From an uncultured Spirochaetota bacterium (GTDB lineage: Bacteria > Spirochaetota > Spirochaetia > SZUA-6 > Fen-1364), in NCBI GenBank assembly GCA_963734545.1, contig CAVTHO010000004.1:160001-224000 (forward strand): 64,000 nucleotides of DNA, written 5' to 3'. The notes below the pieces were generated by a model. The model was not told where the DNA came from and made no database searches. It saw only the letters and a list, made by a program, of their open reading frames with translations. Shown here in pieces: positions 3,246-32,040 of the stretch; within the stretch, counting starts at the first letter, position 1, and each line of letters opens with the position of its first letter. The position numbers and the translations under genes were made by a program.

Positions 3246-4372
3246 TCACTCCCAGCGCTCTTCGAATGCGGGATCCTTCGCCTTCGCTTCCGCAATCTTC
3301 TGTTTCCACAAGCCTTTCAGTCCCTTGTTGTTCCACAGAAGATCAACGGTTTCGTACTCCTTGAGCGGAGAGGCTTTCTTCAGATCGATGTCCAGCAGAT
3401 AGATCTCGATCTTTCCTTGTTTCAGCACTTCGAAATACAGCCCCTCCTGTCCCAGGTAATAGGAGAAGGACAACGCGGGCATGTGATCCGATTCGTCCAT
3501 GCCGTGCCACACGGAGTAGAGCGCGTCTTCCTTCAGGTCGTAGATGAGAACATTCCATCGCGACGGATTCCTTGGGACAGTGATTATTGGGTCATTCATT
3601 ATCGACTGGTAGAGAACGAGGAACACGAAGTTCTGGTCTACAACCGACTGGAGAGTTTTCACCTCAGCGACTATTGGGAGGTACGCCCCAGTGAAGGGCA
3701 GGATGAAATCTGTCAAGACCGACTTGTCGGACCTCGAGTAAACCCGGAGCTCCGTGTCACGCATAGCCCCCATGTAGGGCAACTTTGACTCTGTCGGTTG
3801 AAAACGCGATAACAAGATCAGATTTGCACCAGCATCAAGATCCTTGGGGTTCAGAGATGTAATAGACGTCCGGGTCTCTGCCTTCAGCTGAATACACCCA
3901 GCTTCGCTCCGTATCAATTCGCATGATCCCGTCATTGTGACTACGCAGATTCCTGTAGAAGCCAAATACCTTTTCTCGACGATATGTCCTGAAGTCCGTG
4001 ACCCTATCTGTCTTAACCGCCTTTGTCTTCTTGTCGTAGCGAAAAACCTCATACGAAGGTTCCTTGTTTCCACCACTCCCATAGTAGGGGTAGAAGTACA
4101 ACGACGACTCATCATCATTGGTGAGGCGTGGAAAGGAGTATCCTTGAATGTCCTCAAACCGGAAAGGACCCCTGTCGCTCAGCGGAATCGTCGTGATAGG
4201 CTTCGCCACAACCGCCTGCGCGAACAGCGTCTTTGGCATGTGAACGTCCGTGCGACCCTTTGAACACCTCTTCATACAGCGAACTCAGGTTGCCTCCCTG
4301 CGCGTTCGCCAACAGAATCGGGAGCATCAACAAGAACAGCACGATGATGGGCTGAGTTCTCCTGTTTGCCAT
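3246..4372 (-). CDS. Exported hypothetical protein (~375 aa, 2 frameshifts), putative immunity protein of the upstream giant protein
   Basis: GGGGAG RBS, and ATG 9 bp after the giant gene stop. Signal peptide MANRRTQPIIVLFLLMLPILLANA. Joins ORFs 4154-4372, 3835-4275 and 3246-4157 via shifts at ~4250 and ~3855. Aromatic- and beta-strand-rich, visibly lower GC. Immunity role is inferred from position. Confidence 0.6.
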
Positions 4373-4381
4373 TTGACTCCC

Positions 4382-7300
4382 CTATCGGCCACCAAGCAGT
4401 GATGTGTCCCACCAAGGCTTGATCCGACCGAAGTTGGTGCCGCCACCGTTGAACTGATTCCGCCACCCGCTGAAATACCTGTTGTCCAAAAGCCAGTTGG
4501 AGTAACTGTCATTCAGCACGGAGGCGCTTTGCCAATTCCCGAGACTATTCGCTCTTGGCCCCGCTTCGTAGAGTGTTCCGTCAACTTCTTTCTGCGGTGC
4601 ACTGTGGATCAGGAGGTTCTGACCTTGGTCGTCGACCCCATAGAATCCGATGTGCATGTTTCCAGGAGGGCCGAGGAATACCAGGTCCCCAACCTGCGGA
4701 GCCGCCACCGGGTCAATCCGCGTGTCGTAGGACGTCAGGTACACCCCGCTGGCCTGCTTTGCTCTCACTCGCTCTGCCCACGACTCAGGCAATCCATAGT
4801 CGAAGTCGGCAAGCAAGGCGTTCTGCATGGAGCCCGTTTCTCCTTTGAGCCTTGCTGCAAGCGCGTTGCTGTAATCCTTCGATGAGCTGTCGAGCGCCCG
4901 CTTGTTGATCATTCCGCGGTATGACTGCCCTTCCTCCAGGGCACCGGCGGCATATGCCACAAGGTCAACGTACCCCACGCAGTCCAGCGAGGGAACACTC
5001 CCGTTGGTATCCTTCCAGCGATATAGTTCTGCATTAGGTGCTTGTCCTTCTTGAGGGAACCATCCGGTCACCGCCTTGCCGTACCCACGTTCGACAGTGT
5101 TCGAGTTCGCCCAATATGAGGCACCCGGTGTCTTGCCCTCCTCCGATCCACTTCTATCGTAGTTGATATTCAGGTACTCGCCCGTGTAAGTCAGCGCCAC
5201 ATCATTAATCAGGTTCCCGAACGGATTGTCGTAGCGAGCACTTCCCTCACCGGAAGCGAGGTTCGCCAAGAACAGCGCGCCAGAAAGACCGTCGAATCCG
5301 TCGCTCCCCCGGAAAGCGTTTGTCGTGTACTGGAGCATATCGTGACTGTACATGCTGCCGGCGACCGAGTCCTTCGAGTCCTTCAATGCCTCCCTAAGCC
5401 CGTTCACCAAAGCGAAGGCGTCGCCGTAGTCCTTATTCGACAGAACACCCGAGGTAAACGTGCTTAACTTCTCGTTGCCTGCAAGAAGCGCGAACGACCC
5501 CTCACCATTCACCAGATAGCTCCACAACTTGTTGGATTCCTTGTTGATGCTCCCGATCGCTTGGTCGTTCTGCACTGCTGCCAGCTTCAATAGATCCATC
5601 TCCGCCGCGTGCTCGTATTGCCGTTGACCGACTGTCTTCCCTTCACTGGCGATCTGCGCTGACGCAATATAGCCGAACCCACCGGCCCCGAACTTCTGCA
5701 GCATCCCTGCGCTCCAGGCCATCCCGGTTTCCTCGTATCCCTTCCCTGTCACGCCGAATGCCTGCATCAGGTCCGCGTAGGCGCTGATGCCGCCCATCTT
5801 CGCCTCAAACTCCCCTTTCCCGCCAAGATGTACTCCCTCATGAGCGAACAATGACGCGACCTGCGCCGCCCCTTCGATGCCGCCTCCAAGAAGCTTCGCA
5901 TTTATGCCGATGCTGTTGCTGCCTTCGGCATATGCCAAAGCCTTCAAGTCCTGCTCGGTTATGCCTGCAGTAGAGGCATCATAGTAGCTGACATTCTTCT
6001 GCCCTGCCCAAATCGCCTTTGCAATCTCGTAGTTTCCGCTGTTTTGTGTGTACCCCATCATGTTGATCGCGTTCAGCGTCGAAATGCCCCGCTGGTCGCC
6101 GAACGCTGCACTCGCTTTCGCCCCTGTAATCTTCAGAGTATCCTTGAGCCCGCTCATGCTCGCCGCGCACTGGTTCCCAGGCTCACATTCGTCCCGTTGC
6201 TTCCGAAGTTCATCCCAAATCCGCGGCTACCTCCAAGGTGCATTTCCATCAGCCCGTAGCTCTTGCTGCCGCCGAAGTCGGCGAAGTTCATCACATTCAA
6301 CGTCGCCTCGTTAGTGATCCCATACTGGATCCCCGTCGAAGTCAGGCCACCGGCGAGGCTATTGAAGCTCTCGATGCTCTTTCTGTTGAATACTTTCCCG
6401 CTGAGGTCGACATCGTTTCCGTCGTAGAGGTTCCAGTTTCCAAGCCCAGTGTTTACCGCTGCACCGCCTGCAGCTCCCGCCACGCTCGCCCATGCTCCCG
6501 TTCCAAACGACCCCTGCATGAAGCTATTCGTGTCCCACCCCAGCTTGCCGTCAGTCCAGTTGAACGCGTTGATCGCGCTCGTTGCCGTGTTCGTCGTGAA
6601 CGTCTGCGCCCCCGCAAGCAGCGCTTTGCCCACTCGCCCCCTTGCCGAAGCTTCCCAGCGCTCCTGTCAGCCCTGTCTTTGCGAACCCCTCCCCGACGTT
6701 AAACCCGTTGAACACTCCCCCTATTGTACTGGTCACCGTAGCTGGTCAGGAAGCTCTTCCCGATATCTAGCCCCGCCTCTTCCCAGCTCTTGTACCCGTA
6801 GGCCACATCCAGCGCGTCAAAGAGCACCGTGCTCGATGTGCTGATCGCCGCAGCAGCAGCTATCCCCGCTATCCCCCCGATCCCTCCTGTAGCCACGGTG
6901 GCCACTATCCCCGCAGCTATCGTGCCCACACTCCTCAGGCTGGGCGCCTTGAACCAGCTTCCCGTGTCGTCCCACAGCGGCTTATCCCACCGAGGGGCCG
7001 CCATCTCCGTCCACCCGCGGCTCTCCCTCATCTCGTTCCAGATGAAGTCCCCCATCAGCCGCCCCAACTCCCCCTTGCCGCTGACGATGATGTTTCGCCT
7101 CTGCGACTTGTCGAAGTCAGGCTCATCCGTGAACTCGGGCGCGTACCCTATCCAGGCCCCAAACTCCCCTTCCCCCATCTCCTTGCTGATGTCCCGCTTC
7201 TCTGCCCTGAAGCTCACCACCAGCCCCTTGGCCTTCTTCTCCGCCTGGCTCAGCTCCTTGCCCTCTCCGAAGATCCTCTTCTGCGCTGAGCCCACCTCCT

Positions 7301-10300
7301 CCTGCGCCGCTCCCACCAGGTCCATCACTGCGCCCGCGTCCAGCCCGCTCAGTCGACTCTGGCTCAGGTCCACCTTCAACTGCAGCGCGGGCATCGCGTA
7401 CCACACGTACCCCCCGACGCGCAGATTCTCGCTCACGATGTCGAAGAACAAGCTCCGCATGATCGTCTCTCGCTCGTACACCCCTCCGCTCTTCGCGTAG
7501 CCCGCATCGCCAAAGGTGGTGTCCATGCTCGTCTCAAAGCCCTCGTTGGCCTGCTTCACGCTCTCCGCTAGCGCTTCCTTCGCATCCTCCACGCTCGCTC
7601 GGGCATCATCGGCCAGCCCTCGCGCTGCCAACGCCGACAGCTCGCTCCTGCTCTGCGCTACAAACCTCCTCGCCTCTGCCGCGATCCTCGCCCCCGAGGT
7701 GTCTACTGACAACCCCGCACGCGCCACCACCACTTCTCCTGACCCGATCCCTGCATTCATCCGCCTCAGCGCGCTCAGAGCCTCGGCGCTTCCCACCTCT
7801 CCCAGAAGCCCCTCCACAGCAACCGTGGCCTCTTTCGCGTCATAGCTCATCCCGCTCACCAGCAGCGTGCCCGCGTTCCGCGTGCTGTCCTCTGCGCTTG
7901 CTCCCACCTCAGACAGTATCGCCTCGTTGCCTGCCTGCGCCGCCTTCTCCCTCGTGGCCGCCACCCAGGCAAGCTTGCTCTCTCCCATGTTCAGGTAGGC
8001 CTGCCTCCACGCTTCACTCTTGTCCCCATACTCCTGCTGGAAGCCCTGCCTCCACTGCACAAGCGCCCGGCCCAGCTTCTCCTGGCTGCTCGCCCATGCG
8101 CTTGCTGCCTTGGCCCTCACCAGCCCCACCTGTGCGTACCACCCCTGCCGCCTGTCTCCAAGGTCCTGCACTGACTGGGCCCAGGACTGCTCGGACTCTG
8201 CGCCGCGCGCATCCAGGGCGCCCGCGTACGTGGAAAGCACTGACTGCGCGTACTTCTGCAGAGCCGCCATCCGGGCCTGGGTCTCCGCCGCGTTCAGGAG
8301 TACCCCGCCGGAGAATGAGGCCGCATCCAGCACATTGCTTGAAAGTTCGTGTTCCGCCCTGGCAACCCACTGGGCGTTCTTATAAGCCTGCGAGGCGGCT
8401 GACACAAACGCATCTTTGCCTTGCCGTGCCGGCAATGTACGCGTCGTAGGCGGCCCGATACTCCTGTTGGGCCGTTGCCACCCGGGTCCTCGCGCTGACC
8501 AGGGCGCTGCTGACCTTCTGCTCGGCAGCGGACGTGTCGAGGCCGGCAAACAGCGTCATCCTTGACAGGGCTTTGCTGAAGGAAGACTTGTCCTCAGGCT
8601 TCAGTTGTGCCCAACTTGCATCGAATTGGGCCAGGAGCTCCACGGGTATGTCGACCTTGTCCGCGGCAATTCCCTGACGCTCGCCGGCGACCTTCTTGTA
8701 CTGATCGATGAATGAGGTGAGAGAATCGAGAGATTCACCGTTGCTCCCCTGCAGCTCGGTGAGACGCGCCCAGGCAGCATTGTAGACCTTTGTCGGACTT
8801 ATCGTGTTCTGAACCTTGGCGCCATCATTCAGGCTTCTGAGGCTTGAGACCACGTTGCCTATCTCGTCCCTGATCCTTTCTGCGGCGTTTCTGTCGCTTC
8901 TACTGCCCATGATACCGGGCAAAGATGCCGTGATCTCTGGCAAGTCTCCTGTAGTGCTGATACCGCCTTTCAGCCAGGTCCCACATGCGGCTGAAAATTC
9001 TTTCAGATGTCCTTGACTCGAACTGGCTGGAGGTGTTGGTGCTCTTTCCTCCCGCCATCCGCATCGCAAAGTACAGCTCGAATGCTTCCTTTTCCTCAGC
9101 ATTCGCCATGACTGACTCGTAGCGCGCCTGATCGAGGGAAACAGCTTCGGCAATGTAGGCCTGCACGTCGCTGCTATGGTTTTCACCTGCTATCTCCAGA
9201 CGGAGCCACTTACCGGACGATCTGACGAAACTGTTGTTGCTGGCGTAGCCCGAGAGAAGGCCCCGTATGTCGGCGTCCACATTCGAATCGTATAGCCGTC
9301 TCTTCAGCCAATCCGCCGCGAAGCCCCACCTGTTGATGAGACTATCCATTCCGCCAGACTGCGCGGCAAGCTTTTCCACTGAAGCGACCCACGAGCTGAG
9401 CTTGAAGCTCGAAAGAGCTCCTCTCCGCTCCGTCCTGAAGCGCCTGCTCCTTCTGGAAAAAATCCCTGACTTCCTGGACAGATTCCTCGCTTCCCTGGGA
9501 CGTCAGAACAAACGAGTCATCGATGTCCAGCACGAGCTTTCCATTTCGCACCTTGAGGTAGCTCGACCATGAGCTGGCCCGGTCCGAGGCATCGAAATCT
9601 TTCAAGCCGCCAAGGGCTGCATCGCGGTCTAGAACTTCGCCGCGCGTTTTCTGGAGAGCTTCGTAGAGATCTTGAGCCTTCTTGGCCTGCGCCTCTGTGG
9701 CCAGCGCAAGATCACCGGTCACGCGCTCGAGCCGCATAAACGCGGTGTACTTCTGCTTCCATGCGTCGTACGCTGCCAGAGTGGCGGCGTCTTCAATCGG
9801 CCGTTCCGCTACAGCCTCTGCCCCGAAGAGCCCGGTCAGCGCGTCCTTTGCCGCAGTTGCGCGGACGAGCTGGTCAGCAGCTTCTTTCTGGCGCTCGGCA
9901 GGGCTCTGGTAGTCCGCGGCCACCTCACCGCTTGCTGCCAGATAGCCGCTTGCCGCCCAGTCCTGGATTTCCTCCCGTGCGCGCAGATCGAACCGGGCCT
10001 GTTCCAGGCTGTCGCTGGCGTCCTGCAGATCCGCCAGGAGCGCATTGATGATTGTCCAATGTCTTCGAACTCCGCCAGGGCAGTGTCCACGGCAGACTGC
10101 CCGGCCTGCACGTGCCCGCGGAGACCTTCCATGGCAGCCTGGAGAGATTCGAGCTGCGCCTGGCGTTCCTCGGCCCCGAGGTCCAGGAATGCAAGAGCCT
10201 GGCCCGAACGGCTGATGTCTTCCTTGAGACTGTCAATCCTTGCAAGGGCGGATCGAAAGCTCGCCTCGTCTGCGTCCAATGAAGAGACGGCGGCCGCAGG

Positions 10301-15436: not shown

Positions 15437-15506
15437 GTTGTCCTCTCCTCCACGATTTTTAATAAAGACATTGGAGAGTATACATCTTTTTGAAGAGTTG
15501 AAAAGG

Positions 15507-21540: not shown

Positions 21541-21546
21541 GCGAGC

Positions 21547-23079
21547 CTACTTCAACAGGGGCAGGCTGAATGCTGCCGCTGCTTTGTTGCCGGCAGTGTC
21601 GGTGAGACTGTCCGACACGGCGATGGTGACAATACCGGAGTTGGTGGTGTTGGTGATGTTGACCGAGACCCTGACCGGGGTGAGTCCCGCGATGGCCACC
21701 GGCTGAGGATCAGCAAAAGAGGTCGTGGCCACTGCCACGGGTGTGATAAGCGCCGCGCCATTGGTCGCCGTCACGCTGAAGGAATGCATGATGGAAAAAG
21801 GATCAATGGCTGCCCCATTTGCCAGGCTCAGGTAGACGTCCAAGTAGGACATGTCGTCCCCAGTCGGCCCGAAGGCGGAGAGATTCAGGTTTCCGAATGC
21901 GTCCACGGCAGTGTACTGGCTATAGTCGCCAGGCGCGGGGCGGTCGGTGCGGAACCGAACCACCTCCACGCGGGGAGGTTTCGTAGTCGGCCCATCAGTC
22001 TGGATATTGTAAACAACATCTGAGGCGCTCGCGTTCCCGCTCGTGTCGAGGACCCCGCGCTTGATTGTCAGATTGTACATCGTTCCCCAGACGAAGCGCT
22101 CTTCAGGCACAAGGAAGAAATGGTCGCGCGGCGTGCCATCCGGATCTACCTGGAAGCTCCAGGCGGGCTGGAGCGTGATGAATGACTCCATGTTCTCGCG
22201 AGAGACCGGCTCCGAAAACTGGAGCTCGATCCCCCACGTGGCCTCGAACCCTGTGTTCTCCTGCAGGCCCGCAACGCCGGGGTCGTCAAAGGTCAGCCCT
22301 GTCCCCTGGGGCACGCCGTCCACTGTTGGACGAACCGCCATTAGCGTGGGCCGTACGTCTTCAGCACCGGCGGTGAAACGCCATCGAACAGTTTCGGGAA
22401 GCCTGTTGCCCGAAAGGTCCTTCACCGTGTCCGTGAGGACAACGCTGTACTCAGCGCCGGGTGTCCACGGGGAAAGCGGCGTGAAGCTGGCCGTGGCCCC
22501 GGTCACGTCAAAGGTGACTGTTCCCCCCGGGTCAGGGGACACGGAAAAGGCCGCAATGAATGAAGTCCGGTCAACGGGCTCTGAGAAGCGCACCACGATC
22601 GGCAGCAGGGGATCCGCCACCCTGCTTCCGTCAGCGGGCTGAGTGGGTTGGAGAACCGTCGGCCTGCCCGCCTCGGTCTTTGTTGTGAACGCAAACCGGA
22701 AATCCTTGGCAAGAGAGTTGCCGTCTCTGGTCTCCACGGTGGAAACAACCGCAATCTCGTAGTCATTCCCAGGGGAAACGGGACGAACGGGCATGAAGAC
22801 GAGTCGGCTGCCTTGCCATGCATAGCTGCCGGTCATGGGTGCTCCGTTTTCCGAAAGTGAGAACGCCTGCTCGGCTTTCACAGGGTCGGCAGCGGAGGAA
22901 AACTCCACCCATACGCTGCTCACCGCTGAAGCGGCAATCCGTGCATCGTGGGGATGCCAGTCCGTGATCTCCAGCGGCTGCATGCCCAGGATCAGCGAAC
23001 AGGAGCAGACGCACAGAGCAGCGGCCAGCACAGCGGAAGTCAGCCGGCCGGTCATGGGCTTGCGTAGAAGTACAGCCAT
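21547..23079 (-). CDS. Lipoprotein with tandem bacterial Ig-like (Big_5/SbsA-type) domains
   Basis: Hydrophobic N-terminus ending CSC. Repeats of the type VxFSEPVD...FTP..PW..G.EY.V.L...VKDLSGN.L.....F. Confidence 0.8.
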   Translation of the reverse strand: MAVLLRKPMTGRLTSAVLAAALCVCSCSLILGMQPLEITDWHPHDARIAASAVSSVWVEFSSAADPVKAEQAFSLSENGAPMTGSYAWQGSRLVFMPVRPVSPGNDYEIAVVSTVETRDGNSLAKDFRFAFTTKTEAGRPTVLQPTQPADGSRVADPLLPIVVRFSEPVDRTSFIAAFSVSPDPGGTVTFDVTGATASFTPLSPWTPGAEYSVVLTDTVKDLSGNRLPETVRWRFTAGAEDVRPTLMAVRPTVDGVPQGTGLTFDDPGVAGLQENTGFEATWGIELQFSEPVSRENMESFITLQPAWSFQVDPDGTPRDHFFLVPEERFVWGTMYNLTIKRGVLDTSGNASASDVVYNIQTDGPTTKPPRVEVVRFRTDRPAPGDYSQYTAVDAFGNLNLSAFGPTGDDMSYLDVYLSLANGAAIDPFSIMHSFSVTATNGAALITPVAVATTSFADPQPVAIAGLTPVRVSVNITNTTNSGIVTIAVSDSLTDTAGNKAAAAFSLPLLK

Positions 23080-24477
23080 ACATCTTCCTTCAGGAACGAG
23101 CCTGATCCATTGTCCGAGGCGGCCGCGCCGCCCGGGAGTGTAAGCTTGTAGTACCTCCCGATGTCCGGTGTGCTCTTCGCGAGCCCACCGTAGATGAGGG
23201 ACACCATCTGCCCTTCAGGGGTCCACAGGACTGAAACCAGGGAAGGGTCGGACAATGATGAAGGAAAGAACCCGTCCAGCAGGATTGCCGCGACAAGGTT
23301 TGCGCGGCTCTCCGCGGGGAAGAGCTCGGCGAACTCGATCACGAGCTTCAGCGTTCCCGTCACGTCGATCGAAACAGGTTTTGCATCAGGCGTGTTGAAA
23401 ACAGTCCACGTATCTTCCGTTGCCGCATACACGGCCTTGATGGACTGGACCGTCTGCAGGGGGATGTCGGGCGTAAAGCTCCGCTCGTACGCAAGGCCCA
23501 TCTTGTTGCCGGATAGGTCCGCTGCCGTCTCCGCAATTCGAAGGGTGTAACGCTGATCCATAATGAAGCGCGCCTCGGGAATCAGTGCATAGACCCCTGG
23601 GCTGACCCGCAGCAGGGTACCCTTTATCGTGGGTGTCGATGTGAGCGCGGAAGACAGCGAATCCATTCGAATGTCCTCAGAGAAGGTGAAGAGAAGAAGG
23701 TCATCGGCGCCTGTATGATCAAGGTCGTTCCCCGTCGGGCCGAGAGTGGTGCGGATGCCGGGCGCAATCGAGATCATCGTCGGCGCGGTGGAGTCTTCCT
23801 GGACCCTGTACCTTCCTCCGTACTCGATCCCCATCGGAGTGCCATCCGGCGCGGCCATGTCCTTGCCGACTTTCCAGGTATACGCGGCAAGGTTTGTCCA
23901 CGCGTCGCTGGGCACAATCGTGACCACCCGGCCGGTGACGTCCCACGTGACGATGGTCTCCGTGGAGGGCTGAAGGTCGAACTCCCGGGCAAAGCTGTTC
24001 GCGTCAATAGGCGCTGAAAAGGTCAGGACCAGCGGCCGGTCGATGGCCGCGGTTCCGCCGTCTGATGGATCCGAAGAGAGCAGCGAAGGCCCCGGGCCTG
24101 GATGCCCCACGTAGAACGGGACCTCTTCGTCCGCGTCGAACGCCCTTCCGTTGGCAAGCGTGACCCGGCCGCGGTAGGCAAGCACGTAGCGCACGCCCGG
24201 CCGAAGGCCGGGAACCGGGCTCAAAGTACAGGCGGTTGCCGTCCCATCGGAAATCGCCTGAAACCTGCCCGTCCGGAGAGGACAGTGTGAGGAGGCGCTG
24301 GACGGACGGTCGGTCGGGTGAATCGGGAAACTCCACCCATGGCGACGCGGCAGCGGTGAGAATGGCATCCCGCTCGCTCGGCCAGACGGTCACGGCGAGC
24401 TTCTCAAAGGAGATGATTGCGCAGCCGCACAGCAGGAGCGCCAGGCCCGCCGCGATGCTAGTTCGATATCTCCACAT
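23052..24477 (-). CDS. Second Ig-like (Big_5-type) repeat lipoprotein (frameshift ~24230)
   Basis: Lipobox-like LLLCGC in ORF 24004-24477 continues into ORF 23052-24368 (SSDPSDG...LTFSAPID; FTFSEDI...ADLSGN). Confidence 0.75.
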
Positions 24478-25805
24478 TCATTCCCTCCCGAAGGGTTGGA
24501 GGAGGCGATTCGATGAGGAGGTCCCCCTTTGCGAGCCCCTTCTCAACGGAGAACGATCCGCCCACGTCCCTTCCGAGCGTCACCTGCTTGATAAATGCCT
24601 TGCCATTGACCACGCTGAAGACCTGGGCCGTGGCGCCCTTTTTCTGGAAGATGCACTTCTCAGGAACCACGAGCGACAATTTCGGCTTCTCATAGGCGAT
24701 CGTGGCCCGGACAAACATGCCGGGACGCAGCTTCCCTGCAGGGTTGGAGAGGGATGCCTTGACCAGGAATGCCCCGGTCTGAGGGTCCGCGGTCGGTGAG
24801 ATGGAGTCCACCCTGCCCGCGAGCGGTTGAGAGGAAAGGGACTCCACGGACAGGGCGGCCGGCATTCCCTCCCTCAGCAGAGGCATCTCCGACTCCTGGA
24901 TAGAGAGCGCGGCATAGACATTCTTGGTGTCCATGAGCGTGAGCAGCTTGCCGTTCTGCGCAACGTACTCGCCCTGCTCCACGTACTTGGCCCCGACAAT
25001 CCCCGGCGCCGGTGCGTCGATTGCAAGCGCCTTGAGAAGCTCCTCCGAGGCCTCCAGCTCGCGGCGCGCGGACTCGTAGCGTGCCCGGGCCGCCTCCACC
25101 TCGGCATGAAGGGTCTTTGTATTGAGCCGCACGAGCTGACGGGTCCGGGCCGCGGCATCCGCGGCAGGAACAAGTCCGTCCCGCTGGAGATCCTCATCCC
25201 GCAATCCTATGCGGCGCGAGATCAGGTCTTTCTCTATCATCGCGTATTCATTTCGGGCCGCCAGGAGCCTCAGGCGGACGGCCGCCAGCGCCTCTGCCGT
25301 GACGCCGCCGACCTTGGAGAGCTCCTCCTTGTTGGCAACGGTCTGGGCCGCGTCCTCGACCTCAAGGCGCTTCTGCTCCCGCTCGAGCTCCGTCCTCTGC
25401 ACCGCCACCAGGCGCGCCTCCACGGCGAGCTCGCCTTCCCATAGCTTGGCCTGCGCCAGATCAAGGGAGGAGCGCGCCGAATCGATGCCGCTCAGCGCCT
25501 GCTGGCGGCGGAGCTCGAGCTGGACGTTTTTCAGGGTCAGGAGATTCTGACCCTCCCGTACGGACTGGCCTTCCTTGACGAAAAGCCGCGCAACCGTGCC
25601 GTCCACCGTGGCGGAGAGATCGATCTTCCTCAGGAAGGTGATGGTCCCGAAGCAGGAGATCTCCCGGGGAACGGACTCCTCTTTGACGACCACGGTAGTA
25701 ACTGGCACACGCTCTTCCAGCGGCTCCGCAGGTTTCTGTCTGGCGCAGGAGGCCAGCTCCCACACCACGACCAGCACGAGGGCTGCCCGGGCAACACTGC
25801 TTCAT
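24458..25805 (-). CDS. RND periplasmic adaptor / membrane fusion protein with a long coiled coil
   Basis: GTVARLFVKEGQSVREGQ.L, IDAPAPGIV....VEQGEYV, LRPGMFVRA, LVVP. LASC lipobox. Start codon disrupted near 25800. Confidence 0.9.
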
Positions 25806-25826
25806 TTCAAGGCGCCCCTTTCTTGT

Positions 25827-27206
25827 TCAATAATCAGACGCAGGCCTCCCGGACGGCACGCCGAGGAGCGTCTCCCAGTCCCGCTCGTTGTCCCGCAGGC
25901 GCAGGAGGGACTCGTTCAGCGCGATCTCGGCATTCGCCGTCTCGATGGCGCCCTGGAGATAGTCGATCCGCTTGACCTCGCCGAGATCCATCTGCCTCTG
26001 GAGAATGGTCTCCTTGCGGCGCTGCACGTCCAGTTTCCTGCGCGCAAGCTCTATTGCCCGTCCGGCCTGAGAGTAGGCTGCCATCATACGCTTGACCTGG
26101 AACCGCAGGTCCTGGACGATCTGCTCTTTCTTCCGGGCCTCCGCGTCCAGGGCAAGGCCGGCCGTCTTTCTGTCCACCCACGCGGTGATGCTCTCCAGGG
26201 GAGACGTCTTCACGGACATGCTGCCGCCCCTGTCTTTGCCGGGAGTGGTCGAAGCCCCTGCCGAATAAGTGGTGGGTGACTCAGGCACTGGAAAGGAGAA
26301 TGTAAGCTTCCCTGAGTACTGGGGATTGCTGAGGGGAAAGGCCTCACCGGTGAACGCGGCGGTCAACTCAAGGTCCACGTCCGGAATGAATGGGAACGAG
26401 GCAATACGCACTTGCAGGGAAGCTTTCTGCACGGCCACGTTCTGACGCTTGAGGTCGGGGCTGTAGCTTGCCGCCATCGAATACAGGAGCCCTTCCAGAC
26501 CGGAGAGATCGGCCGCCGTGTATTCCTGATCCACGCCTCCCGACAGCTCGAGGCCATCGCCAGGATCGAGGGAGAGGAGCTTCTTCATCTGGTAGCGGGA
26601 ATCCTCCAGGGACGTTTCTGTCTCCGAAAGCGTGATCTCCAGGGAGAGCAGCTCGAGCTCCGCCTGGGCATGGTCCAGCTCGAGAGCGCCGCCCAGCCGG
26701 ACCTGGGTCTGGAGAATCTCGATGTTCTGGTGGGCAAGGGCGATGGTCCGACGGAGTATCTCTCTCTTCTGTTCCGCCACGAGTATCCCGGCAAACAGCC
26801 GCCTGAGGTCGTATTCCAGGGCGCGGTACTTCTGCTCCAGGTCCTCCCTGTCCATGTTAAGATTCAAGCGGGCAACGCTCCGCTCGAATGGCTTGGTGCC
26901 CCCGCGGAGCAGCGGTTGCGTGGCGCTCACTGAAATGGTCTTGCCGCGCGTATCCGGCGCTCCCGTGGTGATTGTCGTGTTCTCGTCATAGCCGATCGAA
27001 AGACGGGGGAAGTACTCGCGGATTCCCAGGGTGAAGGTGAGCTCCTGGGCGGAAAGCAGCGCGCTCTGGTACGCCAGATCCCGCGACGACGCGATTGCCC
27101 TTTCCACCGCCTGGTCCTCCGTGTAGGGCTCTGCGCAGAGAGGTTGACCGAGGGTCGTCAAAATCCAGGCGGCGGTGATAAGCGCGAGCGAGGGGCGGGA
27201 GCCCAC
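25827..27206 (-). CDS. TolC-family outer membrane channel
   Basis: Signal peptide, AVERAIASS, YFPRLSIGY, ATQPLLRGG, two helical repeats ending QVRLG...LD and QMDLGEVKRIDYLQ. GTG start at 27206 is inferred. Confidence 0.82.
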   Translation of the reverse strand: MGSRPSLALITAAWILTTLGQPLCAEPYTEDQAVERAIASSRDLAYQSALLSAQELTFTLGIREYFPRLSIGYDENTTITTGAPDTRGKTISVSATQPLLRGGTKPFERSVARLNLNMDREDLEQKYRALEYDLRRLFAGILVAEQKREILRRTIALAHQNIEILQTQVRLGGALELDHAQAELELLSLEITLSETETSLEDSRYQMKKLLSLDPGDGLELSGGVDQEYTAADLSGLEGLLYSMAASYSPDLKRQNVAVQKASLQVRIASFPFIPDVDLELTAAFTGEAFPLSNPQYSGKLTFSFPVPESPTTYSAGASTTPGKDRGGSMSVKTSPLESITAWVDRKTAGLALDAEARKKEQIVQDLRFQVKRMMAAYSQAGRAIELARRKLDVQRRKETILQRQMDLGEVKRIDYLQGAIETANAEIALNESLLRLRDNERDWETLLGVPSGRPASDY

Positions 27207-27216
27207 TGAGGTGCGG

Positions 27217-27721
27217 TTATTTGCCGCGCCCGGCGGCGAAGGCCTTGGCTGCCTCTTTGAGACAGTCACCGAGTATCCGCTTGAGGATCCATGGCGATGA
27301 GATGCTGTCCGAGGACTCGCTTGTGTGGACAACGGTCAGGGCCGGCTGCGCCGCGTCCAGCGAAGGGTACATTTCTATGGAAACCATGATCGCGTATTGA
27401 GGCGTGAAGTCCCGGATTGTCTCCCGCTCCACTATATGGACACGCAGCGGCCAGCCATCTCCGGCGGCAGCCGTGGTGACCGCGAACCCGCTCCCGGGAG
27501 CGAGCACGGGAAGAAGGGCCTCAACGTCTCGGGCCACTTCATGTGAAAGGACTCTCCGGTCCACGTCCACCTTGTCCACGAACACGCCGGCGGGCGCAGG
27601 GCCCGGGTCCGCCCTTGGCCGGGTACGCCACCGTGTCCCTTCGGGGGAACAGTGCGCATGAGGCAATCAGGGTGGTTGCGCACACCACGCACAATGCCGC
27701 GAAGAAAAGCCTGCACTTCAT
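27217..27721 (-). CDS. Hypothetical lipoprotein (frameshift ~27605)
   Basis: MKCRLFFAALCVVCATTLIASC (lipobox) joins ORF 27217-27666. ATGA overlap with the upstream TPR gene. Confidence 0.6.
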
Positions 27722-28404
27722 TTCTCAGCCTCCCGAACACGCTGCTCGAGATCCGCAACCGGTTTGCGCATGCCGCTGTCCGGCGGCAGGAGCGCTTTTG
27801 CGGTGGCGAGGTCCGCGAGCGCCGTATCCGTCATTCCGAATCGGTAAAGGATTCTCGCGGATTCGATGTATGACTGGGAGAACTCGACCGCGAACTCCTG
27901 GGACCGGCGGAAAAACGCCAGGGCTCCGCGGATGTCGTCTCCCGCGAGCTTGAGCATGCCCGCCTGGTGGAGAAACCTGGGATCTCCGGGGTTCAGCTCC
28001 AGGACTGCATTGAGGAGACTCTCCGCCTCCTTTGTCTTGCCCTGTGCCTGCAGTGCGCGGATGAGCCAAAGCTGCGCTTCCGTGTATCCGGGCAGGCGTT
28101 TGGCAAGCTCGCGAAACACGTGCTCCGACTCTTTCATGTCTCCCTTGAAGAAAAGGATCTTCCCTTCCAGAAGCCGCGCCTGATGGAACCCGCGCGTGCG
28201 GCTGTCTATGTGGGAGACCAGCGACGCTGCCTGGTCCACGGAACCACGCAGATACAGGTCGCGCGCCTTTACATAGGCGTCCAGGTCGGCGCTGCTGGGC
28301 TTTGCAGGGACGCAGCTGGCCAGCGCTATGGATGAGAGTGCTGCGGCCACGAGCACATGGTGACGAAATGCATGCATCGACGGTTTACTCCTCCCGCGCC
28401 TCAA
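27718..28404 (-). CDS. Tetratricopeptide-repeat lipoprotein
   Basis: IALASC lipobox; TPR patterns such as EAESLLNAVLELNPGD. Confidence 0.82.
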   Translation of the reverse strand: MRRGRSKPSMHAFRHHVLVAAALSSIALASCVPAKPSSADLDAYVKARDLYLRGSVDQAASLVSHIDSRTRGFHQARLLEGKILFFKGDMKESEHVFRELAKRLPGYTEAQLWLIRALQAQGKTKEAESLLNAVLELNPGDPRFLHQAGMLKLAGDDIRGALAFFRRSQEFAVEFSQSYIESARILYRFGMTDTALADLATAKALLPPDSGMRKPVADLEQRVREAEK

Positions 28405-29825
28405 TTCGACAGGATGTATTCCAGCCTTTCCCTGGTCCGGCCCGCGGAGGTATTTTTCTTGTCAATGAAGTAAGGCCGATGTCTTGCGTCCTTTGCAAAT
28501 GCACGGAGAATTCCAACGGCAATCAGGGTGGTCCTGTTGTCCTTGAGCTCCAGGGTGGCAAGAAGCGGATCCAGGAGGGTCGACTCGCCTGTCGCCGCGG
28601 CTTTCTCCGCTGCAGCGGAGAGCTCAGCCCGGGTCATGAGTCGTGCGCCGTCGGCTGGAGACAAGCCCAGGACCCCAGCAAGCTCCTTCCGGTAAGTCCC
28701 TGCCGCCTCGACATGCGGGGCAAGGTTGATTGCCGTTTCCAGGACATCCGCCAGCTTGTCTGAGCTCTGGTTGGGGAGGCCGCTGAGCCCAAGGTAAAGG
28801 CGATGGAAGTACGGCGGCAGGCTGCGCAGGTGGGGCAGCAGGGCGGCGTAGGCATCAATGTCCGCGGGGGCAGCGCGTTTCGATTCGATGCGCGCCGAGA
28901 GCAGCAGATACTTCTCGAAAGTCCCCGTGCCGTTGCGTTGTTCCAGGAGCCGGGCTGCGGTGCTCCAGTCCTGCCGCGCGAAAGCGGTGACGGCCTCCAG
29001 CGCAGACTTGCCTTTGCCCGCGGGGTTGAACGCCTTGTCATCCAGCTTTCGACCAAGAGCAAGAAGGTTGTTCTGTATGTCTTTTACCTTTGCGGCCCCG
29101 TACGCGCCGCCGTATTCAGCTTCCTTATAGGCGGTGAGCACGGCGGAATCGAAATCCCCCAGGCGCTCGTATGCCGCTGACTGCATGAGCCCGAGCCCCG
29201 GCTCGTAGGGGTACGCTGACTCGTATGAGTCGAGCACGGCGACCAGGTCGGAGTATCTGCCTGCCGACTCCAGCACCCTCGCGTAGGCGCGGTAATCTTC
29301 CATTGACATGGACGCCTTTGCCTTGCCCCATGCCGCATCCAAATACTCAAGCGCCTCCTTCTGCTTGTCTTCCGCAAGTAGAGCCCGGCCCGTAATGAAG
29401 CCGAATGGGGCAGCAGCATCGGTTTTCACGGACAGCGCCTTTCTCCCGTACTCCACTGCCTTCGGGTATTCCCCCCGGGAATAGGAAACGATAGCAAGGC
29501 CGCCGTACAGTGTTGCCCTGTCCGACGTTTTCATGCGGTTTCCTGCCAGGGCATATGCCCGCTGCAGATATGGCGCGGCAGAGCCCGGGTCTCCCTTCTG
29601 TAGACAGAGCATTCCGATCTCGTGCTTGAGCTGAAAGCGATCAGGGAACTCCTGATCGATTCGGACAAGGTCGGCGATGAGCTTGTCTATTCCGTTGGAG
29701 CGGTTGATTGCCGCATACGCTTTTTTGAATGCGGCATCGCCGGCGCAGGAGGACATCAAGGCAGCTATGGCGCAAACGAGGAAAAGGGTGATAGTTGGCC
29801 CTGCGGTATGCTTTAAGACCGACAT
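28401..29825 (-). CDS. Tetratricopeptide-repeat lipoprotein, first gene of the operon
   Basis: LMSSC lipobox; TPR patterns (LAIVSYSRGEYPKAVEYGRKAL; AAYERLGDFDSA). Confidence 0.8.
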   Translation of the reverse strand: MSVLKHTAGPTITLFLVCAIAALMSSCAGDAAFKKAYAAINRSNGIDKLIADLVRIDQEFPDRFQLKHEIGMLCLQKGDPGSAAPYLQRAYALAGNRMKTSDRATLYGGLAIVSYSRGEYPKAVEYGRKALSVKTDAAAPFGFITGRALLAEDKQKEALEYLDAAWGKAKASMSMEDYRAYARVLESAGRYSDLVAVLDSYESAYPYEPGLGLMQSAAYERLGDFDSAVLTAYKEAEYGGAYGAAKVKDIQNNLLALGRKLDDKAFNPAGKGKSALEAVTAFARQDWSTAARLLEQRNGTGTFEKYLLLSARIESKRAAPADIDAYAALLPHLRSLPPYFHRLYLGLSGLPNQSSDKLADVLETAINLAPHVEAAGTYRKELAGVLGLSPADGARLMTRAELSAAAEKAAATGESTLLDPLLATLELKDNRTTLIAVGILRAFAKDARHRPYFIDKKNTSAGRTRERLEYILSN

Positions 29826-29853
29826 ATTGACTCTCGCTTCTTGATTGCGCCCG

Positions 29854-29882
29854 ACTCTACATCAACCTGCACCTAAAGTCAA
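29854..29882 (-). promoter_or_regulatory. Sigma70-type promoter of the TPR-TolC-RND-giant protein operon
   Basis: Minus strand TTGACT-17 bp-TAGAGT, ending 28 bp before the ATG at 29825. Confidence 0.55.
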
Positions 29883-31462: not shown

Positions 31463-31934
31463 ATGCGGAAAGCTTCACACGGGCCTGCGCAAAGCACCCA
31501 CCAGGAATGGAACGGAGACACCCTCAGCCACTGGGTGAAGCAGGCCTTCATGACCATGCGGCGGGAAATGGAAGCCTCCCTCCGCAGATCAGGCATGACC
31601 ATAACCCAGTGGCGCGCACTGGGTGTGCTTCTCCACACGCCGGGGGCCACGCACTCGGACCTTGTCCAGCGCCTGGAAATAGAGGCGCCGAGCGTCACCA
31701 GCCTCGTGAACGGGATGGAGCGCCGGGGCTGGGTGAAAAGGACGCGCTCCACCGCGGACGCCCGGGTGAAACGGCTCGCCCTGACAGCGCTCGGCCGTCG
31801 TCTCATCGGAGAAGCGGCCGAGGCCATGGGGCCCATCGAGACAGCGCATGGCAGCGTCTCTCAGCGCGGGAGAGCGGGCAACGCTGAAGAGACTCCTCCG
31901 CACCATGGTGGAGGGGATGCAGAAGTCCTCCTGA
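31463..31934 (+). CDS. MarR-family transcriptional regulator (frameshift ~31841)
   Basis: GMTITQWRAL, SDLVQRLEIEAPSVTSLVNGMERRGWVKR...DARVKRLALTALG. Shifted frame gives LSAGERATLKRLLRTM. Confidence 0.88.
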
Positions 31935-31986
31935 ACCAGGCCCGTTCATCCACTGGACCGCACCGCAAAACTTCTAAAATTTCCTG

Positions 31987-32016: not shown

Positions 32017-32040
32017 GCTCACCACAGAGAAGGAGATCGT

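Follow-up and report, generated by a model that had tools for sequence, protein, structure and literature searches.

SecDF, a proton-driven motor that pulls polypeptides, is an example of an RND-type protein whose substrate is a polypeptide. For tripartite pumps, further precedents are found in parts of a published account (PMC8277102): the heterotrimeric MdtBC exemplifies paired RND permeases, and MacAB-TolC exports the Sec-routed enterotoxin STII from the periplasm, so that Sec translocation is followed by passage through a tripartite pump. The periplasmic pump cargo known from these parts does not exceed about 10 kDa and is moved by an ABC pump, compared with about 400 kDa for the giant protein considered here (PMC8277102). 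In polymorphic toxins, a peptidase-like domain can precede the variable end and Sec-dependent members exist (PMC3482391, Table 1); the first 300,000 characters of this survey contain no occurrence of “TolC.”

The locus described here lies in a 64,000-nucleotide stretch of DNA from an uncultured Spirochaetota bacterium (the window) and combines an RND pump module with a giant protein gene and a variable downstream partner gene. A first-pass annotation had proposed that it encodes an export or surface-display machine for a polymorphic toxin. Its observations were confirmed in part and its interpretation is partly supported: the module, its coupling to the giant gene and the hallmarks of a polymorphic toxin stand, whereas the giant as a single open reading frame (ORF) and the small downstream gene as an intact one do not.

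Organization of the pump module

As annotated, the genes form a co-oriented run, all on the minus strand, which extends from a sigma70-like site (29882-29854) down to about position 3246. The module part of this run is ordered as follows:

29854..29882 (-), sigma70-like promoter match upstream of TPR1 (TTGACT-17-TAGAGT, 9/12 matches)
28401..29825 (-), TPR1, TPR-repeat lipoprotein of 474 aa (several Pfam TPR families, e.g., TPR_14, E 5.5e-9)
27718..28404 (-), TPR2, TPR-repeat lipoprotein of ~228 aa (Pfam TPR_19, E 9.3e-12; lipobox-like ALASC)
27217..27666 (-), orf3, putative small ORF with uncertain start and no family
25827..27332 (-), OMF, TolC-like outer membrane factor (Pfam OEP, E 2.4e-33, three stretches)
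24458..25777 (-), MFP, periplasmic adaptor lipoprotein (Pfam HlyD_D23, E 1.1e-30; lipobox-like ELASC)
23052..24477 (-), Ig1, Big_5 Ig-like lipoprotein (Pfam Big_5, E 8.4e-16; N-terminal lipobox LLCGC)
21547..23079 (-), Ig2, Big_5 Ig-like lipoprotein of 510 aa (Pfam Big_5, E 5.6e-37, three stretches; lipobox-like signal)
18490..21540 (-), RND1, permease of 1016 aa (Pfam ACR_tran, E 1.6e-180, profile positions 2-1019 of 1021)
15507..18767 (-), RND2, permease and divergent paralog of RND1 (Pfam ACR_tran, E 1.2e-116)

Pfam and NCBIfam matches support the TPR-TPR-TolC-MFP-Ig-Ig-RND-RND arrangement. The sigma70-like site is a consensus match only, with one such site observed and 0.4 expected in shuffled sequence. 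Family searches among the locus ORFs scanned found neither an ATPase, in agreement with the first-pass annotation, nor T6SS genes. Of the five accessory lipoproteins that had been named, four carry lipobox-like signals (TPR1, TPR2, Ig1, and Ig2), whereas orf3 matches no Pfam, NCBIfam or PHROGs family and has a single weak tblastn relative, in genome G149 (22% identity, E 2.8e-5). TPR1 (lipobox-like LMSSC) is encoded in a single frame and is 75% identical to its ortholog in G002, a genome of the same genus. The OMF is 85% identical to the G002 ortholog, and because this identity begins at 27281, its true start probably lies near that position. The MFP exceeds the cut-off of the NCBIfam family RND_mfp (TIGR01730; 195.6 bits, cut-off 94.9), and Ig2 additionally shows a weak Pfam match to CopC, a periplasmic copper-binding Ig fold (E 8.6e-5).

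The two permeases share about 26% identity. Both are of ordinary size, and among solved structures they come closest to ordinary pumps (MdtB, ZneA, CmeB, MdtF, and MtrD-like chains), the first three being the nearest chains for RND1. The best NCBIfam match of RND1, RND_permease_2, reaches 482 bits, below the cut-off of 1250. For RND2, the Pfam and NCBIfam matches begin at residue 96-134, and its true start is probably situated near 18500. A single Asp in TM4 is kept in 18/18 RND1 and 23/23 RND2 orthologs. Both proteins also match SecD_SecF_C (E 5.4e-7 for RND1 and 6.6e-4 for RND2).

The giant protein, its cassette and its partner

The giant gene starts with an ATG at 15436, 70 nt downstream of the RND2 stop codon, and is followed by the partner gene:

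4382..15436 (-), giant protein gene of ~3,680 codons, interrupted here (stop-to-stop frames; colinear tblastn with intact orthologs)
13877..15436 (-), giant signal peptide and conserved N-terminal domain G_a (hydrophobic N-terminus MKAFHLSWKYLIACIFALLTTAALAG)
6163..8402 (-), conserved giant core, consisting of G_g (Gly/Ala-rich hydrophobic segment) and G_h (77% identity to G002; frame change near 6642-6741)
5749..6157 (-), zincin-like domain (HEGVH here), start of the variable cassette (structure model and fold comparison)
4385..5245 (-), C-terminal NlpC/P60-like cell-wall endopeptidase domain (fold match and sub-cut-off Pfam score)
3246..4275 (-), downstream partner gene, immunity-like (matches a 384-aa ORF in G008; frameshift near 3843-3854)

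Intact orthologs with conserved synteny that are colinear with the window copy are a 3,636-aa ORF in G002 and the 3,744-aa protein P0002, the latter sharing the type of C-terminus. Members of the family range from 2,000 to 4,200 aa and are mostly alpha-helical, and the giant body matches no Pfam, NCBIfam or PHROGs family. The Sec signal that had been noted on the apparent cargo is present at its N-terminus, and nearly all intact giants carry such a Sec-type signal peptide. The G_a domain shows 23-41% identity among giants across the class, and the hydrophobic segment of the core is seen in most intact giants. Core alignments (A1 and A3) were built; a structure model of the core reached a mean pLDDT of 66, and no informative fold match was found for it.

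The zincin-like stretch is the most widely shared part of the giant in a search of 1.84 billion proteins. Residues 20-136 of its model exceed pLDDT 90, and VIA-align places it close to deuterolysin (1eb6, Z 6.8, rmsd 3.2, 107 aligned residues) and the zincin-like 3e11 (Z 6.7), Z values in a range that is commonly reached. Since the family consensus reads HEAxRDG, the HExxH motif is not conserved in this domain. For the C-terminal domain, the best match is 2evr (Z 8.1, rmsd 3.8, 131 aligned residues), and MepS, LytE, CwlO, SagA, and RipB follow with Z 6.2-7.9. Further NlpC/P60 fold matches include the NlpI-MepS complex (8xud) and a diffocin baseplate subunit (Z 6.5), and Tae2 (6win), an effector of this fold, is among the weak Foldseek rows. 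In Pfam, NLPC_P60 scores 18.2 bits for the window giant, below the cut-off of 23, and 24.6 bits for its relative P0054. The motifs DCVGYV, GDLVF..HIGFYG, and IHSAP, which we take to contain the catalytic Cys and His residues, are present.

The C-terminus differs even between same-locus orthologs of one genus: the alignment of the window giant with that of G002 ends abruptly past the core, where the former continues into the NlpC/P60-like domain and the latter into an M23 domain (E 2.2e-13). Other relatives end in M15 or M23, and the C-termini are mostly unalignable with one another. An enzyme fold is recognizable in only about four of about ten C-terminus types, all of them cell-wall hydrolases (NlpC/P60, M23, and M15); folds of nucleases or of other toxins that act in the cytoplasm were not observed. 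The partner gene matches no Pfam, NCBIfam or PHROGs family. Its two ORFs in the window (146 and 303 aa), split near 3843-3854 and previously annotated as one small exported protein, correspond to a single signal-peptide-bearing ORF of 384 aa on contigs C95 and C78 of G008, situated directly 3' of a C-terminus of the same type as in the window. A downstream gene is shared only where C-termini closely resemble each other (G000 with G008, L016 with L017); in G002, its place is taken by a gene for an LRR lipoprotein instead. As judged by eye and by hydrophobicity, 10/14 tightly linked downstream ORFs encode a signal peptide or lipobox. The conserved body, the variable C-terminus with wall hydrolases and the variable, mostly exported downstream gene support the annotated polymorphic-toxin-like character of the giant.

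Instead of the single ORF of about 3,700 aa that had been annotated, colinear tblastn comparison with G002 and P0002 revealed nine frame changes and an in-frame TAG (13874-13876) within 4382-15436. Ig1 is frameshifted near 24217-24224, with residues 1-87 of the G002 protein matching 24477-24217 and residues 85-468 matching 24224-23070 in another frame. The breaks that the assembly shows in the giant, its partner and Ig1 had escaped the first-pass annotation. Nearly an even chance, though somewhat below it, is given to the possibility that the 11 interruptions in 3246-15553 reflect true mutations in the source organism, in which giant and partner would be decaying pseudogenes. In favor of this, their density in these 12.3 kb is about nine times the assembly background (4 in the ~40.7 kb of genes that were checked; Poisson P 7e-8), one of them is a stop codon rather than an indel, and the locus neighborhood carries traces of rearrangement (see below). 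However, essential genes of the assembly are also frameshifted (secA is split, and the C-terminus of rpoC lies in another open frame), as are Ig1 and another RND gene, which indicates that indel errors occur in this assembly. Moreover, an outside contig covers one of the ten giant junctions and lacks one G of the GGG run at 8917-8919, which brings two frames into register there, and all fragments align colinearly with G002 at 50-77% identity and are free of large deletions. Consensus building from mixed-strain long reads tends to fail at genes that differ between strains. The interruptions of giant, partner and Ig1 are probably at least in part long-read consensus errors; the window copy may nonetheless be non-functional.

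The locus is flanked by a restriction-modification pair, by a 215-aa stretch left over from a second copy of the giant and by an ORF whose translation, inspected by eye, resembles an IS200-like transposase, which shows that rearrangement has occurred in the past. The nearby giant fragment was considered as a displaced toxin/immunity cassette and rejected, as it is a piece of the core.

Distribution and coupling in Spirochaetia

The giant core was detected in 105/401 Spirochaetia genomes (53/155 genera) and Ig2 in 71/401 (E<=1e-28). Sixty genomes contain both, 45 only the giant core, 11 only Ig2, and 285 neither, corresponding to an odds ratio of 34.5 (Fisher P 3e-31) among genomes that, as relatives, are not independent. 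RND2 orthologs (E<=1e-110) occur in 28/401 genomes, 24 of which encode the core; in a 25th, G035, the N-terminus of a giant is located at a contig end. When module-positive genomes are defined by an Ig2 or RND2 match, 62/74 contain the core. The figure of 45/105 giant genomes without Ig2 match (E<=1e-28) is an upper bound, since the module of G228 was missed by the search.

Giant and Ig2 on the same contig are within 25 kb of each other in 26/31 pairs. Among the inspected loci, giant and module are adjacent in 21 and not adjacent in 14, with five indeterminate (21/35 informative). Adjacency extends over many families and takes two forms. In 14 divergent loci (G017, G031, G121, G128, G149, G242, G247, G045, G216, G063, G109, G196, G341, and G068), TPR2 is the module gene closest to the giant, whose start lies 150-1,300 bp from the TPR2 start; in seven tandem loci (G000, G002, G008, G035, G331, G294, and G385), the giant is located 3' of RND2. 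The non-adjacent cases include the complete genomes G255, G101, and G291, in which giant and module are Mb apart, and Treponema sp. MAGs with the giant beside recG and yggT. These data bear out the proposed coupling and show that module and giant form a recurring unit and are not chance neighbors. From the giant genomes without Ig2 match and the non-adjacent loci it follows that an adjoining module is not a strict requirement for the giant, and as roughly three in four of the searched genomes lack the family, it is not essential.

A possible two-part system and its closest relatives

Tentatively, and with rather less than even confidence, it is proposed that the locus represents a copy of a two-part spirochaete system, conserved and apparently undescribed, in which the giant is an antibacterial toxin, the partner its immunity protein, and the pump module handles the giant. 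The first part would be an envelope-spanning tripartite machine of two paralogous, proton-driven RNDs, the lipoprotein MFP and the TolC-like OMF, with two TPR and two Big_5 Ig-like lipoproteins as accessories. The second would be the Sec-exported giant, whose N-terminal domain and core, including the hydrophobic Gly/Ala segment, are conserved and precede a swappable cassette of a zincin-like domain and an effector (a putative NlpC/P60 endopeptidase here; M23, M15 or unknown folds elsewhere), along with which the tightly linked, usually exported partner gene varies. Most likely, the giant would act as a polymorphic antibacterial toxin on peptidoglycan in the periplasm, against which the partner would protect. 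After Sec translocation, the module might help the giant to cross the outer membrane or to become installed in it, making up a two-step route driven by the proton motive force. The data show the gene content, its conservation, the genetic coupling and the variability of C-terminus and partner; toxicity, immunity and any part of the RND/OMF machine in handling or exporting the giant are inferred from there on, and the pairing may represent an undescribed way of deploying a bacterial weapon.

It is possible, though rather less likely than not, that the module is a small-molecule, lipid or metal efflux pump that is merely co-regulated with the giant or works beside it, e.g., by exporting an envelope component or cofactor or by clearing a by-product, while Sec and general machinery place the giant. 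Each permease is a full-length ACR_tran protein of standard length with a single TM4 Asp, and the closest solved structures belong to small-molecule and metal pumps (MdtB, ZneA, CmeB, and MdtF), which also counts against handling of the giant by the pump; the MFP score, the CopC match of Ig2 and the 14 loci in which the giant has no adjoining module likewise fit efflux. Mere co-regulation, however, would not be expected to hold adjacency in two layouts across many families, and the odds ratio, the 26 close same-contig pairs and the core in most module-positive genomes argue against it, as do the four accessory lipoproteins, which are not known to take part in any small-molecule pump.

Rather improbable is a giant that serves as an envelope scaffold, whose hydrolase remodels the cell's own wall, either opening it for trans-envelope assembly or acting in shape or division, with the downstream protein as regulator or inhibitor and the module in the same envelope structure. 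The exclusive recognition of wall-hydrolase folds fits self-acting wall remodeling as well as a weapon; the giant has a long helical body that is conserved, its spread over genomes and genera looks more vertical than that of typical mobile toxin loci, and TPR lipoproteins act as adaptors of NlpC/P60 hydrolases, with NlpI-MepS among the fold matches. Against this stands the joint swap of unrelated hydrolase types and downstream gene in same-locus orthologs within a genus, a pattern that marks diversifying toxin/immunity pairs and not a housekeeping enzyme. The patchy presence of the family, three contigs with a giant C-terminal part in G008 and several core matches in G350 point the same way. 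Tape-measure proteins of phages are long and helical, with hydrophobic segments and a C-terminal muralytic domain (M23 or NlpC/P60). The giant resembles them in architecture, and its effector matches the diffocin NlpC/P60 subunit, yet a tape-measure-like protein of a phage or tailocin in a prophage remnant is very improbable: the intact 3,744-aa relative matches 0 PHROGs families, nearly all members carry a Sec signal peptide, phage genes were not found among the neighbors scanned, and the conserved neighbor is a pump module.

Compared with described systems, the proposed toxin-handling machine is closest in its pump genes to MdtABC-TolC and MuxABC-OpmB, which likewise combine two adjacent RND paralogs with one MFP and an OMF, MdtB being the best solved match of RND1. 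The locus RNDs, however, score 255 bits against NCBIfam cut-offs of 1584 (MdtB) and 1774 (MdtC), and the locus adds four conserved accessory lipoproteins, an operon-encoded OMF and the coupling to the giant gene. With MacAB-TolC and STII, as described in part of PMC8277102, it shares a cargo with Sec signal and a proposed route from periplasm to outside via an MFP/OMF pump, driven there by the ABC motor MacB and here by RNDs. As in type I secretion (HlyBD-TolC and LapBCE-LapA), a giant cargo gene adjoins MFP and OMF genes, but an ABC ATPase is lacking, the cargo bears an N-terminal Sec signal, and family searches gave no RTX or T1SS match for the giant. SecDF belongs to the same RND superfamily; RND1 and RND2, in contrast, are 12-TM AcrB-type proteins accompanied by MFP and OMF, score far below the SecDF cut-offs and are not orthologs. 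An NlpC/P60-fold, wall-cleaving effector paired with an exported, here putatively protective, partner is also found in the Tae amidases of T6SS with their periplasmic immunity proteins, which use another delivery apparatus, whereas here the effector sits at the end of a giant protein exported by Sec. Finally, the long conserved N-terminal body, the variable C-terminus with a peptidase-like domain ahead of it and the variable gene immediately 3' are shared with polymorphic toxins (CdiA/CdiB, Rhs, MafB, and LXG). Family searches of the giant detected no TPS, Rhs, MafB-N, LXG or other known trafficking domain; its alpha-helical body, belonging to no known family, is coupled to an RND/OMF module instead.

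The RND module in the window

The genes on the RND2 side of the giant gene form a run on the minus strand that begins at a promoter-like site. Eight of them (TPR1, TPR2, OMF, MFP, Ig1, Ig2, RND1 and RND2) are referred to here as the module.

29882-29854, minus strand: sigma70-like consensus match, start of the gene run
28401-29825, minus strand: TPR1 (family search; lipobox-like signal)
27718-28404, minus strand: TPR2 (family search; lipobox-like signal)
27217-27666, minus strand: small ORF without a family in the family search
25827-27332, minus strand: OMF, TolC-like (Pfam OEP, E 2.4e-33)
24458-25777, minus strand: MFP (NCBIfam TIGR01730 RND_mfp, 195.6 bits, cut-off 94.9; lipobox-like signal)
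23052-24477, minus strand: Ig1, Big_5 Ig-like (family search; lipobox-like signal)
21547-23079, minus strand: Ig2, Big_5 Ig-like (family search; lipobox-like signal)
18490-21540, minus strand: RND1 permease (Pfam ACR_tran, E 1.6e-180, profile positions 2-1019 of 1021)
15507-18767, minus strand: RND2 permease (Pfam ACR_tran, E 1.2e-116, in two stretches)

The order TPR, TPR, TolC, MFP, Ig, Ig, RND, RND and the lipoprotein signals, which a first-pass annotation had read from the sequence, were recovered by the Pfam and NCBIfam searches and by the lipobox-like signals. Two long minus-strand ORFs located just upstream of the promoter-like site (30029-30973 and 31861-33222) matched no Pfam family. 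The latter is probably a shadow ORF, as it is overlapped by a plus-strand ORF at 32041-33468 that codes for an MFS transporter (E 5e-53).

The module contains the components of an RND tripartite pump, namely a full-length ACR_tran permease of the 12-TM type and, encoded alongside the permeases, a cognate MFP (TIGR01730) and OMF (Pfam OEP). The acidic residue of the proton relay in TM4 is present as one Asp in all 18 RND1 and all 23 RND2 orthologs, in a column that we take to be TM4 from its motif. RND1 is a complete AcrB-type permease whose closest solved structures are MdtB, ZneA and CmeB, and RND2 is a divergent paralog of it (~26% identity). The two paralogous permeases share one MFP and adjoin each other in the window and in most inspected loci. 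Their order is reversed in four genomes (G017, G019, G005 and G121), where they are separated by an opposite-strand TPR1 or by about 1 kb. Neither permease reached the NCBIfam cut-off for a named pump, and orthology to MdtB or MdtC was not found: the MdtB and MdtC cut-offs are 1584 and 1774 bits, whereas RND1 scored 255 bits and RND2 141-144 bits. Relatives carry generic database names, such as the “efflux RND transporter permease subunit” of Treponema pectinovorum and Treponema sp.

The giant gene and its downstream partner

The giant gene (4382-15436, minus strand) lies 3' of RND2. The window copy and almost every intact relative start with a hydrophobic signal, behind which comes an N-domain that is conserved and bears a motif. 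Most intact giants also carry a Gly/Ala-rich hydrophobic segment 700-900 aa before their end. No Pfam, NCBIfam or PHROGs family was matched by the giant body, and ten fragments of giant and partner gave no NCBIfam family. The conserved core can be aligned across the class (alignments A1 and A3). A model of 913 aa of this core (mean pLDDT 66, pTM 0.39) gave nothing at E<=0.001 in Foldseek and generic long-helix matches only in VIA-align (Z<=8.4), and a core profile search against PDB sequences returned nothing below E 0.2. Similarly, neither the N-domain nor the C-terminal fragment had a usable match in the protein atlas.

Beyond the core, the protein is variable. Between the source genome (G000) and its same-genus ortholog at the same locus (G002), the alignment halts sharply past the core and a cassette follows. 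The first cassette domain, which was modelled with high confidence, is the giant part shared most widely among the 1.84 billion proteins searched and aligns in VIA-align to zincin-type proteases at Z 6.7-6.8, a Z range that is common there. The HExxH present in the window copy was dropped as a conserved catalytic motif of this domain, the family consensus being HEAxRDG. An NlpC/P60-like endopeptidase effector end was found in the window copy, in genome G008 and in the intact relative P0002. The C-terminal domain of the window copy was modelled as a papain-like fold of the NlpC/P60 type (mean pLDDT 79, pTM 0.84), and its top VIA-align match was 2evr (Z 8.1, rmsd 3.8, 131 aligned), followed by MepS, LytE, CwlO and SagA at Z 6.6-7.9, with RipB also below 2evr. 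Foldseek alone gave nothing at E<=0.001 for this model, and the C-terminal fragment had no match among PDB sequences. Its Pfam score for NlpC/P60 stayed below the gathering cut-off (18.2 bits vs 23), a cut-off that its relatives straddle (P0054, 24.6 bits; P0050, 22.8 bits). The C-terminal translation contains DCVGYV, HIGFYG and IHSAP, which may correspond to the catalytic Cys/His motifs of NlpC/P60. The C-terminus of G002 is a Peptidase_M23 domain (E 2.2e-13), other relatives end in M15 or M23 domains, six further C-termini matched no family, and most C-termini cannot be aligned with one another. Close relatives consequently combine a conserved body with a variable C-terminal domain, as is characteristic of polymorphic toxins.

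In the metagenome-assembled genome G008, three contigs, C20, C78 and C95 (loci L012, L080, L081 and L082), each encode the C-terminal portion of a giant, all of them ending in the same NlpC/P60-type domain. The partner gene is present on C78 and C95, and C20 stops before it. The three copies represent either paralogs or co-binned strains. Frameshifts also occur in the RND genes of G008.

In 14 loci the giant is followed by a tightly linked ORF that overlaps it or starts within 90 nt; in the window, this is the partner gene (3246-4275, minus strand). A signal peptide or lipobox was recognized by eye and by hydrophobicity in 10 of these 14 ORFs. Partner sharing was restricted to two pairs with closely similar C-termini: G000 and G008 (59% identity), and loci L016 and L017. 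The M23 C-terminus of G002 is instead followed by an LRR lipoprotein. Complex prediction with the intact pair from G008 C95, consisting of the NlpC/P60-type C-terminal 420 aa and the mature partner, gave a score of 0.00 (mark 0.34), the fold of the partner being uncertain, and counts neither for nor against a complex.

Interruptions and rearrangement of the window copy

The giant had been annotated at first pass as a single protein of ~3,700 aa, a reading that stop-to-stop frames do not sustain, as 4382-15553 is not one ORF. Comparison with two intact proteins, the ortholog on G002:C59 (a single, syntenic ORF of 3,636 aa) and P0002 (3,744 aa), revealed a colinear sequence with nine frame jumps and an in-frame TAG at 13874-13876. 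The partner gene is split as well, its window ORFs of 146 aa and 303 aa corresponding to one 384-aa ORF in G008, and Ig1 carries one frameshift near 24217-24224. The window spans G000:C4:160001-224000 of a source genome that consists of 10 contigs (5.1 Mb, 89% complete) and whose closest named relatives are uncultured Spirochaetaceae and Spirochaetota MAGs. Elsewhere in this assembly, secA (G000:C7:220275-222669) is split over two open frames, the C-terminal part of rpoC (G000:C9:92395-96472) sits in another open frame and a second RND gene (G000:C5:442259-445314) is split; rpoB and three uvrA-like genes are intact. As a result of these splits, gene calls from G000 will be fragmented, and such frameshift-like splits may partly explain its completeness value.

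Breaks are denser in the giant region, with 11 in 12.3 kb versus about 4 in ~40.7 kb of background (Poisson P 7e-8). Two public sequencing runs, with shares of 0.06 and 0.05 of the stretch, cover 10 of 30 and 5 of 30 bins at 90% likeness. A contig from an outside run bridges only one of the ten giant interruptions: one G fewer in the GGG at 8917-8919 brings the frames into register. On balance, we lean slightly toward assembly error rather than decay as the origin of the interruptions, and a strain-varying gene could lead to a faulty long-read consensus. That the window copy is dead is a somewhat less probable, though substantial, alternative.

The surroundings of the partner gene contain the following features:

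270-2730, plus strand: type II restriction-modification pair, downstream of the partner gene and convergent with the locus
G000:C4:158001-160028, minus strand: region just before the window start with the three features that follow
G000:C4:159537-160028, minus strand: IS200/IS605-like transposase ORF, recognized by eye from its translation
G000:C4:158707-159354, minus strand: remnant of a second giant copy (215 aa; 84-89% identity to core residues 63-255; one TAA)
within G000:C4:158001-160028, minus strand: 196-aa exported protein resembling the one encoded after the G008 partner gene

In the restriction-modification pair, the methylase is of the Eco57I/N6_Mtase type (E 4e-12) and the endonuclease of the BsuBI/PstI type (E 7e-62). 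Given the transposase ORF, the giant remnant and the exported protein, this end of the locus is rearranged.

Linkage of module and giant in Spirochaetia

Among 401 sampled Spirochaetia genomes, 105 from 53 of 155 genera had a match to the conserved core of the giant, mostly in open frames of 2,000-4,200 aa. A strict search for RND2 (E<=1e-110) identified 28 genomes, 24 of which carry the giant core. However, when 12 giants were sampled among genomes that were RND2-negative at this threshold, seven had a complete module beside them. The strict search thus undercounted the module, which was therefore recounted via Ig2, matched in 71 of the 401 genomes (E<=1e-28). Both giant and Ig2 are present in 60 genomes, the giant only in 45, Ig2 only in 11 and neither in 285 (odds ratio 34.5; Fisher P 3e-31, a value that overstates the case because relatives are not independent). 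One genome counted as “Ig2 only”, G035, has the N-terminus of a giant beside the module, running off the contig end. The first-pass annotation had named giants that usually occur without the module as speaking against its proposal; this is not what the sample shows.

Among the 60 genomes with both, 31 carry them on one contig, in 26 cases at a distance of 7-21 kb; the remaining five pairs are 31 kb, 37 kb or 1.9-2.9 Mb apart. They lie on different contigs in 28 genomes, mostly fragmented assemblies, and one genome is without listed coordinates. Inspection of individual loci revealed a variable organization. Divergent arrangements were found in 14 loci, with 150-1,300 bp between the start of the giant and that of an opposite-strand TPR2-OMF-MFP-Ig1-Ig2-RND-RND run. 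A tandem arrangement with the giant after RND2 was found in seven loci (the window, G002, G008, G035, G331, G294 and G385), two of which (G331 and G294) have the Ig genes ahead of OMF and MFP. Giant and module are not adjacent in 14 inspected loci, namely G019, G024, G255, G228, G041, G402, G270, G101, G291, one copy in G350, G021, G273 (where a TPR2-like gene is the sole neighbour) and two Treponema sp. MAGs, in which the giant follows recG and yggT. Five further loci are cut by contig ends. The link between module and giant is consequently not obligatory, and the two are very probably genetically coupled. Overall, between about one-sixth and one-quarter of the sampled Spirochaetia genomes carry the cluster, Treponema genomes included.

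Several unusual loci were also noted. At G374:C1:94772-103623, a second Ig2-like gene apparently lies directly upstream of the giant gene with no RND genes between; the same genome has a complete module on another contig. Arrays of shorter ORFs that contain the core, each open over ~1,000-1,360 aa, occur in two complete genomes (G409:C1:2736446-2749900, with three in a row, and G075:C1:1416313-1426025). These match mainly the last 150 core residues (39-49% identity) and may be a short form of the giant family. Locus L050 (VRUG01000028.1), from a MAG labelled Planctomycetota, contains a relative of the giant core (27% identity, E 1e-41), which reflects either mis-binning or transfer outside the spirochaetes.

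Possible functions and relation to known systems

Judging from sequence, the giant and its partner are probably a toxin and its immunity protein; the giant would be a polymorphic toxin that attacks the cell wall. Exported ORFs downstream of the giant are what one would expect if the toxin acts in the periplasm and its immunity protein is exported, the protection by the latter being putative. Alternatively, the giant might be a self-acting wall-remodelling scaffold with the downstream protein as its regulator, which we regard as improbable. That the cluster is a prophage tape-measure relic is highly improbable: P0002 had no PHROGs matches, and the scanned neighbours are pump, restriction-modification and housekeeping genes.

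If the giant is a toxin, the linked RND/MFP/OMF machine together with the TPR and Ig lipoproteins would be needed to deploy it in or across the outer membrane. The whole chain of toxin, immunity and deployment via this machine is our favoured but tentative proposal, with chances somewhat below even. It is doubtful that the giant protein is handled by the pump. The eight-gene module, with its RND pair, MFP, TolC-like duct and TPR/Ig helpers, is an uncertain and rather unlikely candidate for a new protein secretion or display system, in which the proton-driven module would pick up the Sec-exported giant in the periplasm and pass it through, or install it in, the outer membrane. We would likewise hesitate to call the cluster a categorically new secretion route, which is a minority reading. 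The pump might instead transport a metal, a lipid or a small molecule, working only alongside the giant, an explanation that is also on the unlikely side. The sizes and domains of RND1 and RND2 give no hint of an enlarged conduit.

The importance of the cluster lies in its tie between a toxin-like giant and a specific, unusual tripartite machine. Should the proposed chain hold, spirochaetes would possess a contact weapon on a par with CDI or T6SS, made of efflux-pump parts, and handling of the giant by the pump would widen the range of known RND machine abilities. Even if the pump does not handle the giant, the system defines an unannotated family of large proteins (2,000-4,200 aa, outside Pfam) as well as a conserved pump equipped with four accessory lipoproteins. 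We know of no interbacterial weapon system worked out in spirochaetes, and the literature search likewise found none. To our knowledge, the way in which Sec-dependent polymorphic toxins cross the outer membrane of their producer is unsettled in the field. A full-text search, at the level of titles and abstracts, found no published description of the cluster or of an RND-linked giant toxin in spirochaetes.

Some features of the cluster have precedents. MdtBC is described as a case of paired RNDs, and MacAB-TolC with the enterotoxin STII as a case of export by Sec and then by a pump, with cargo up to ~10 kDa (PMC8277102). A survey of polymorphic toxins presents a “T2SS/Sec-dependent” route as the default, with no signature neighbour genes; its first 300,000 characters contain no TolC- or RND-linked route and no instance of “TolC” (PMC3482391). 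Trafficking domains of polymorphic toxins (TPS, Rhs, PAAR/VgrG, LXG and MafB-N) were not found by Pfam or NCBIfam in the fragments and two intact relatives. Type I secretion relies on an ABC transporter with an ATPase at the inner membrane, whereas no ABC or ATPase family was found with Pfam and NCBIfam among the 19 ORFs and fragments scanned here, in line with the first-pass reading that the locus has no ATPase. Moreover, type I cargo lacks a Sec signal and carries a C-terminal secretion signal, whereas the giant has an N-terminal signal and an enzyme domain at its C-terminus, so that the architecture differs from type I secretion on both counts, as had been proposed. The parts of the cluster are of known kinds, and their combination appears to be new.
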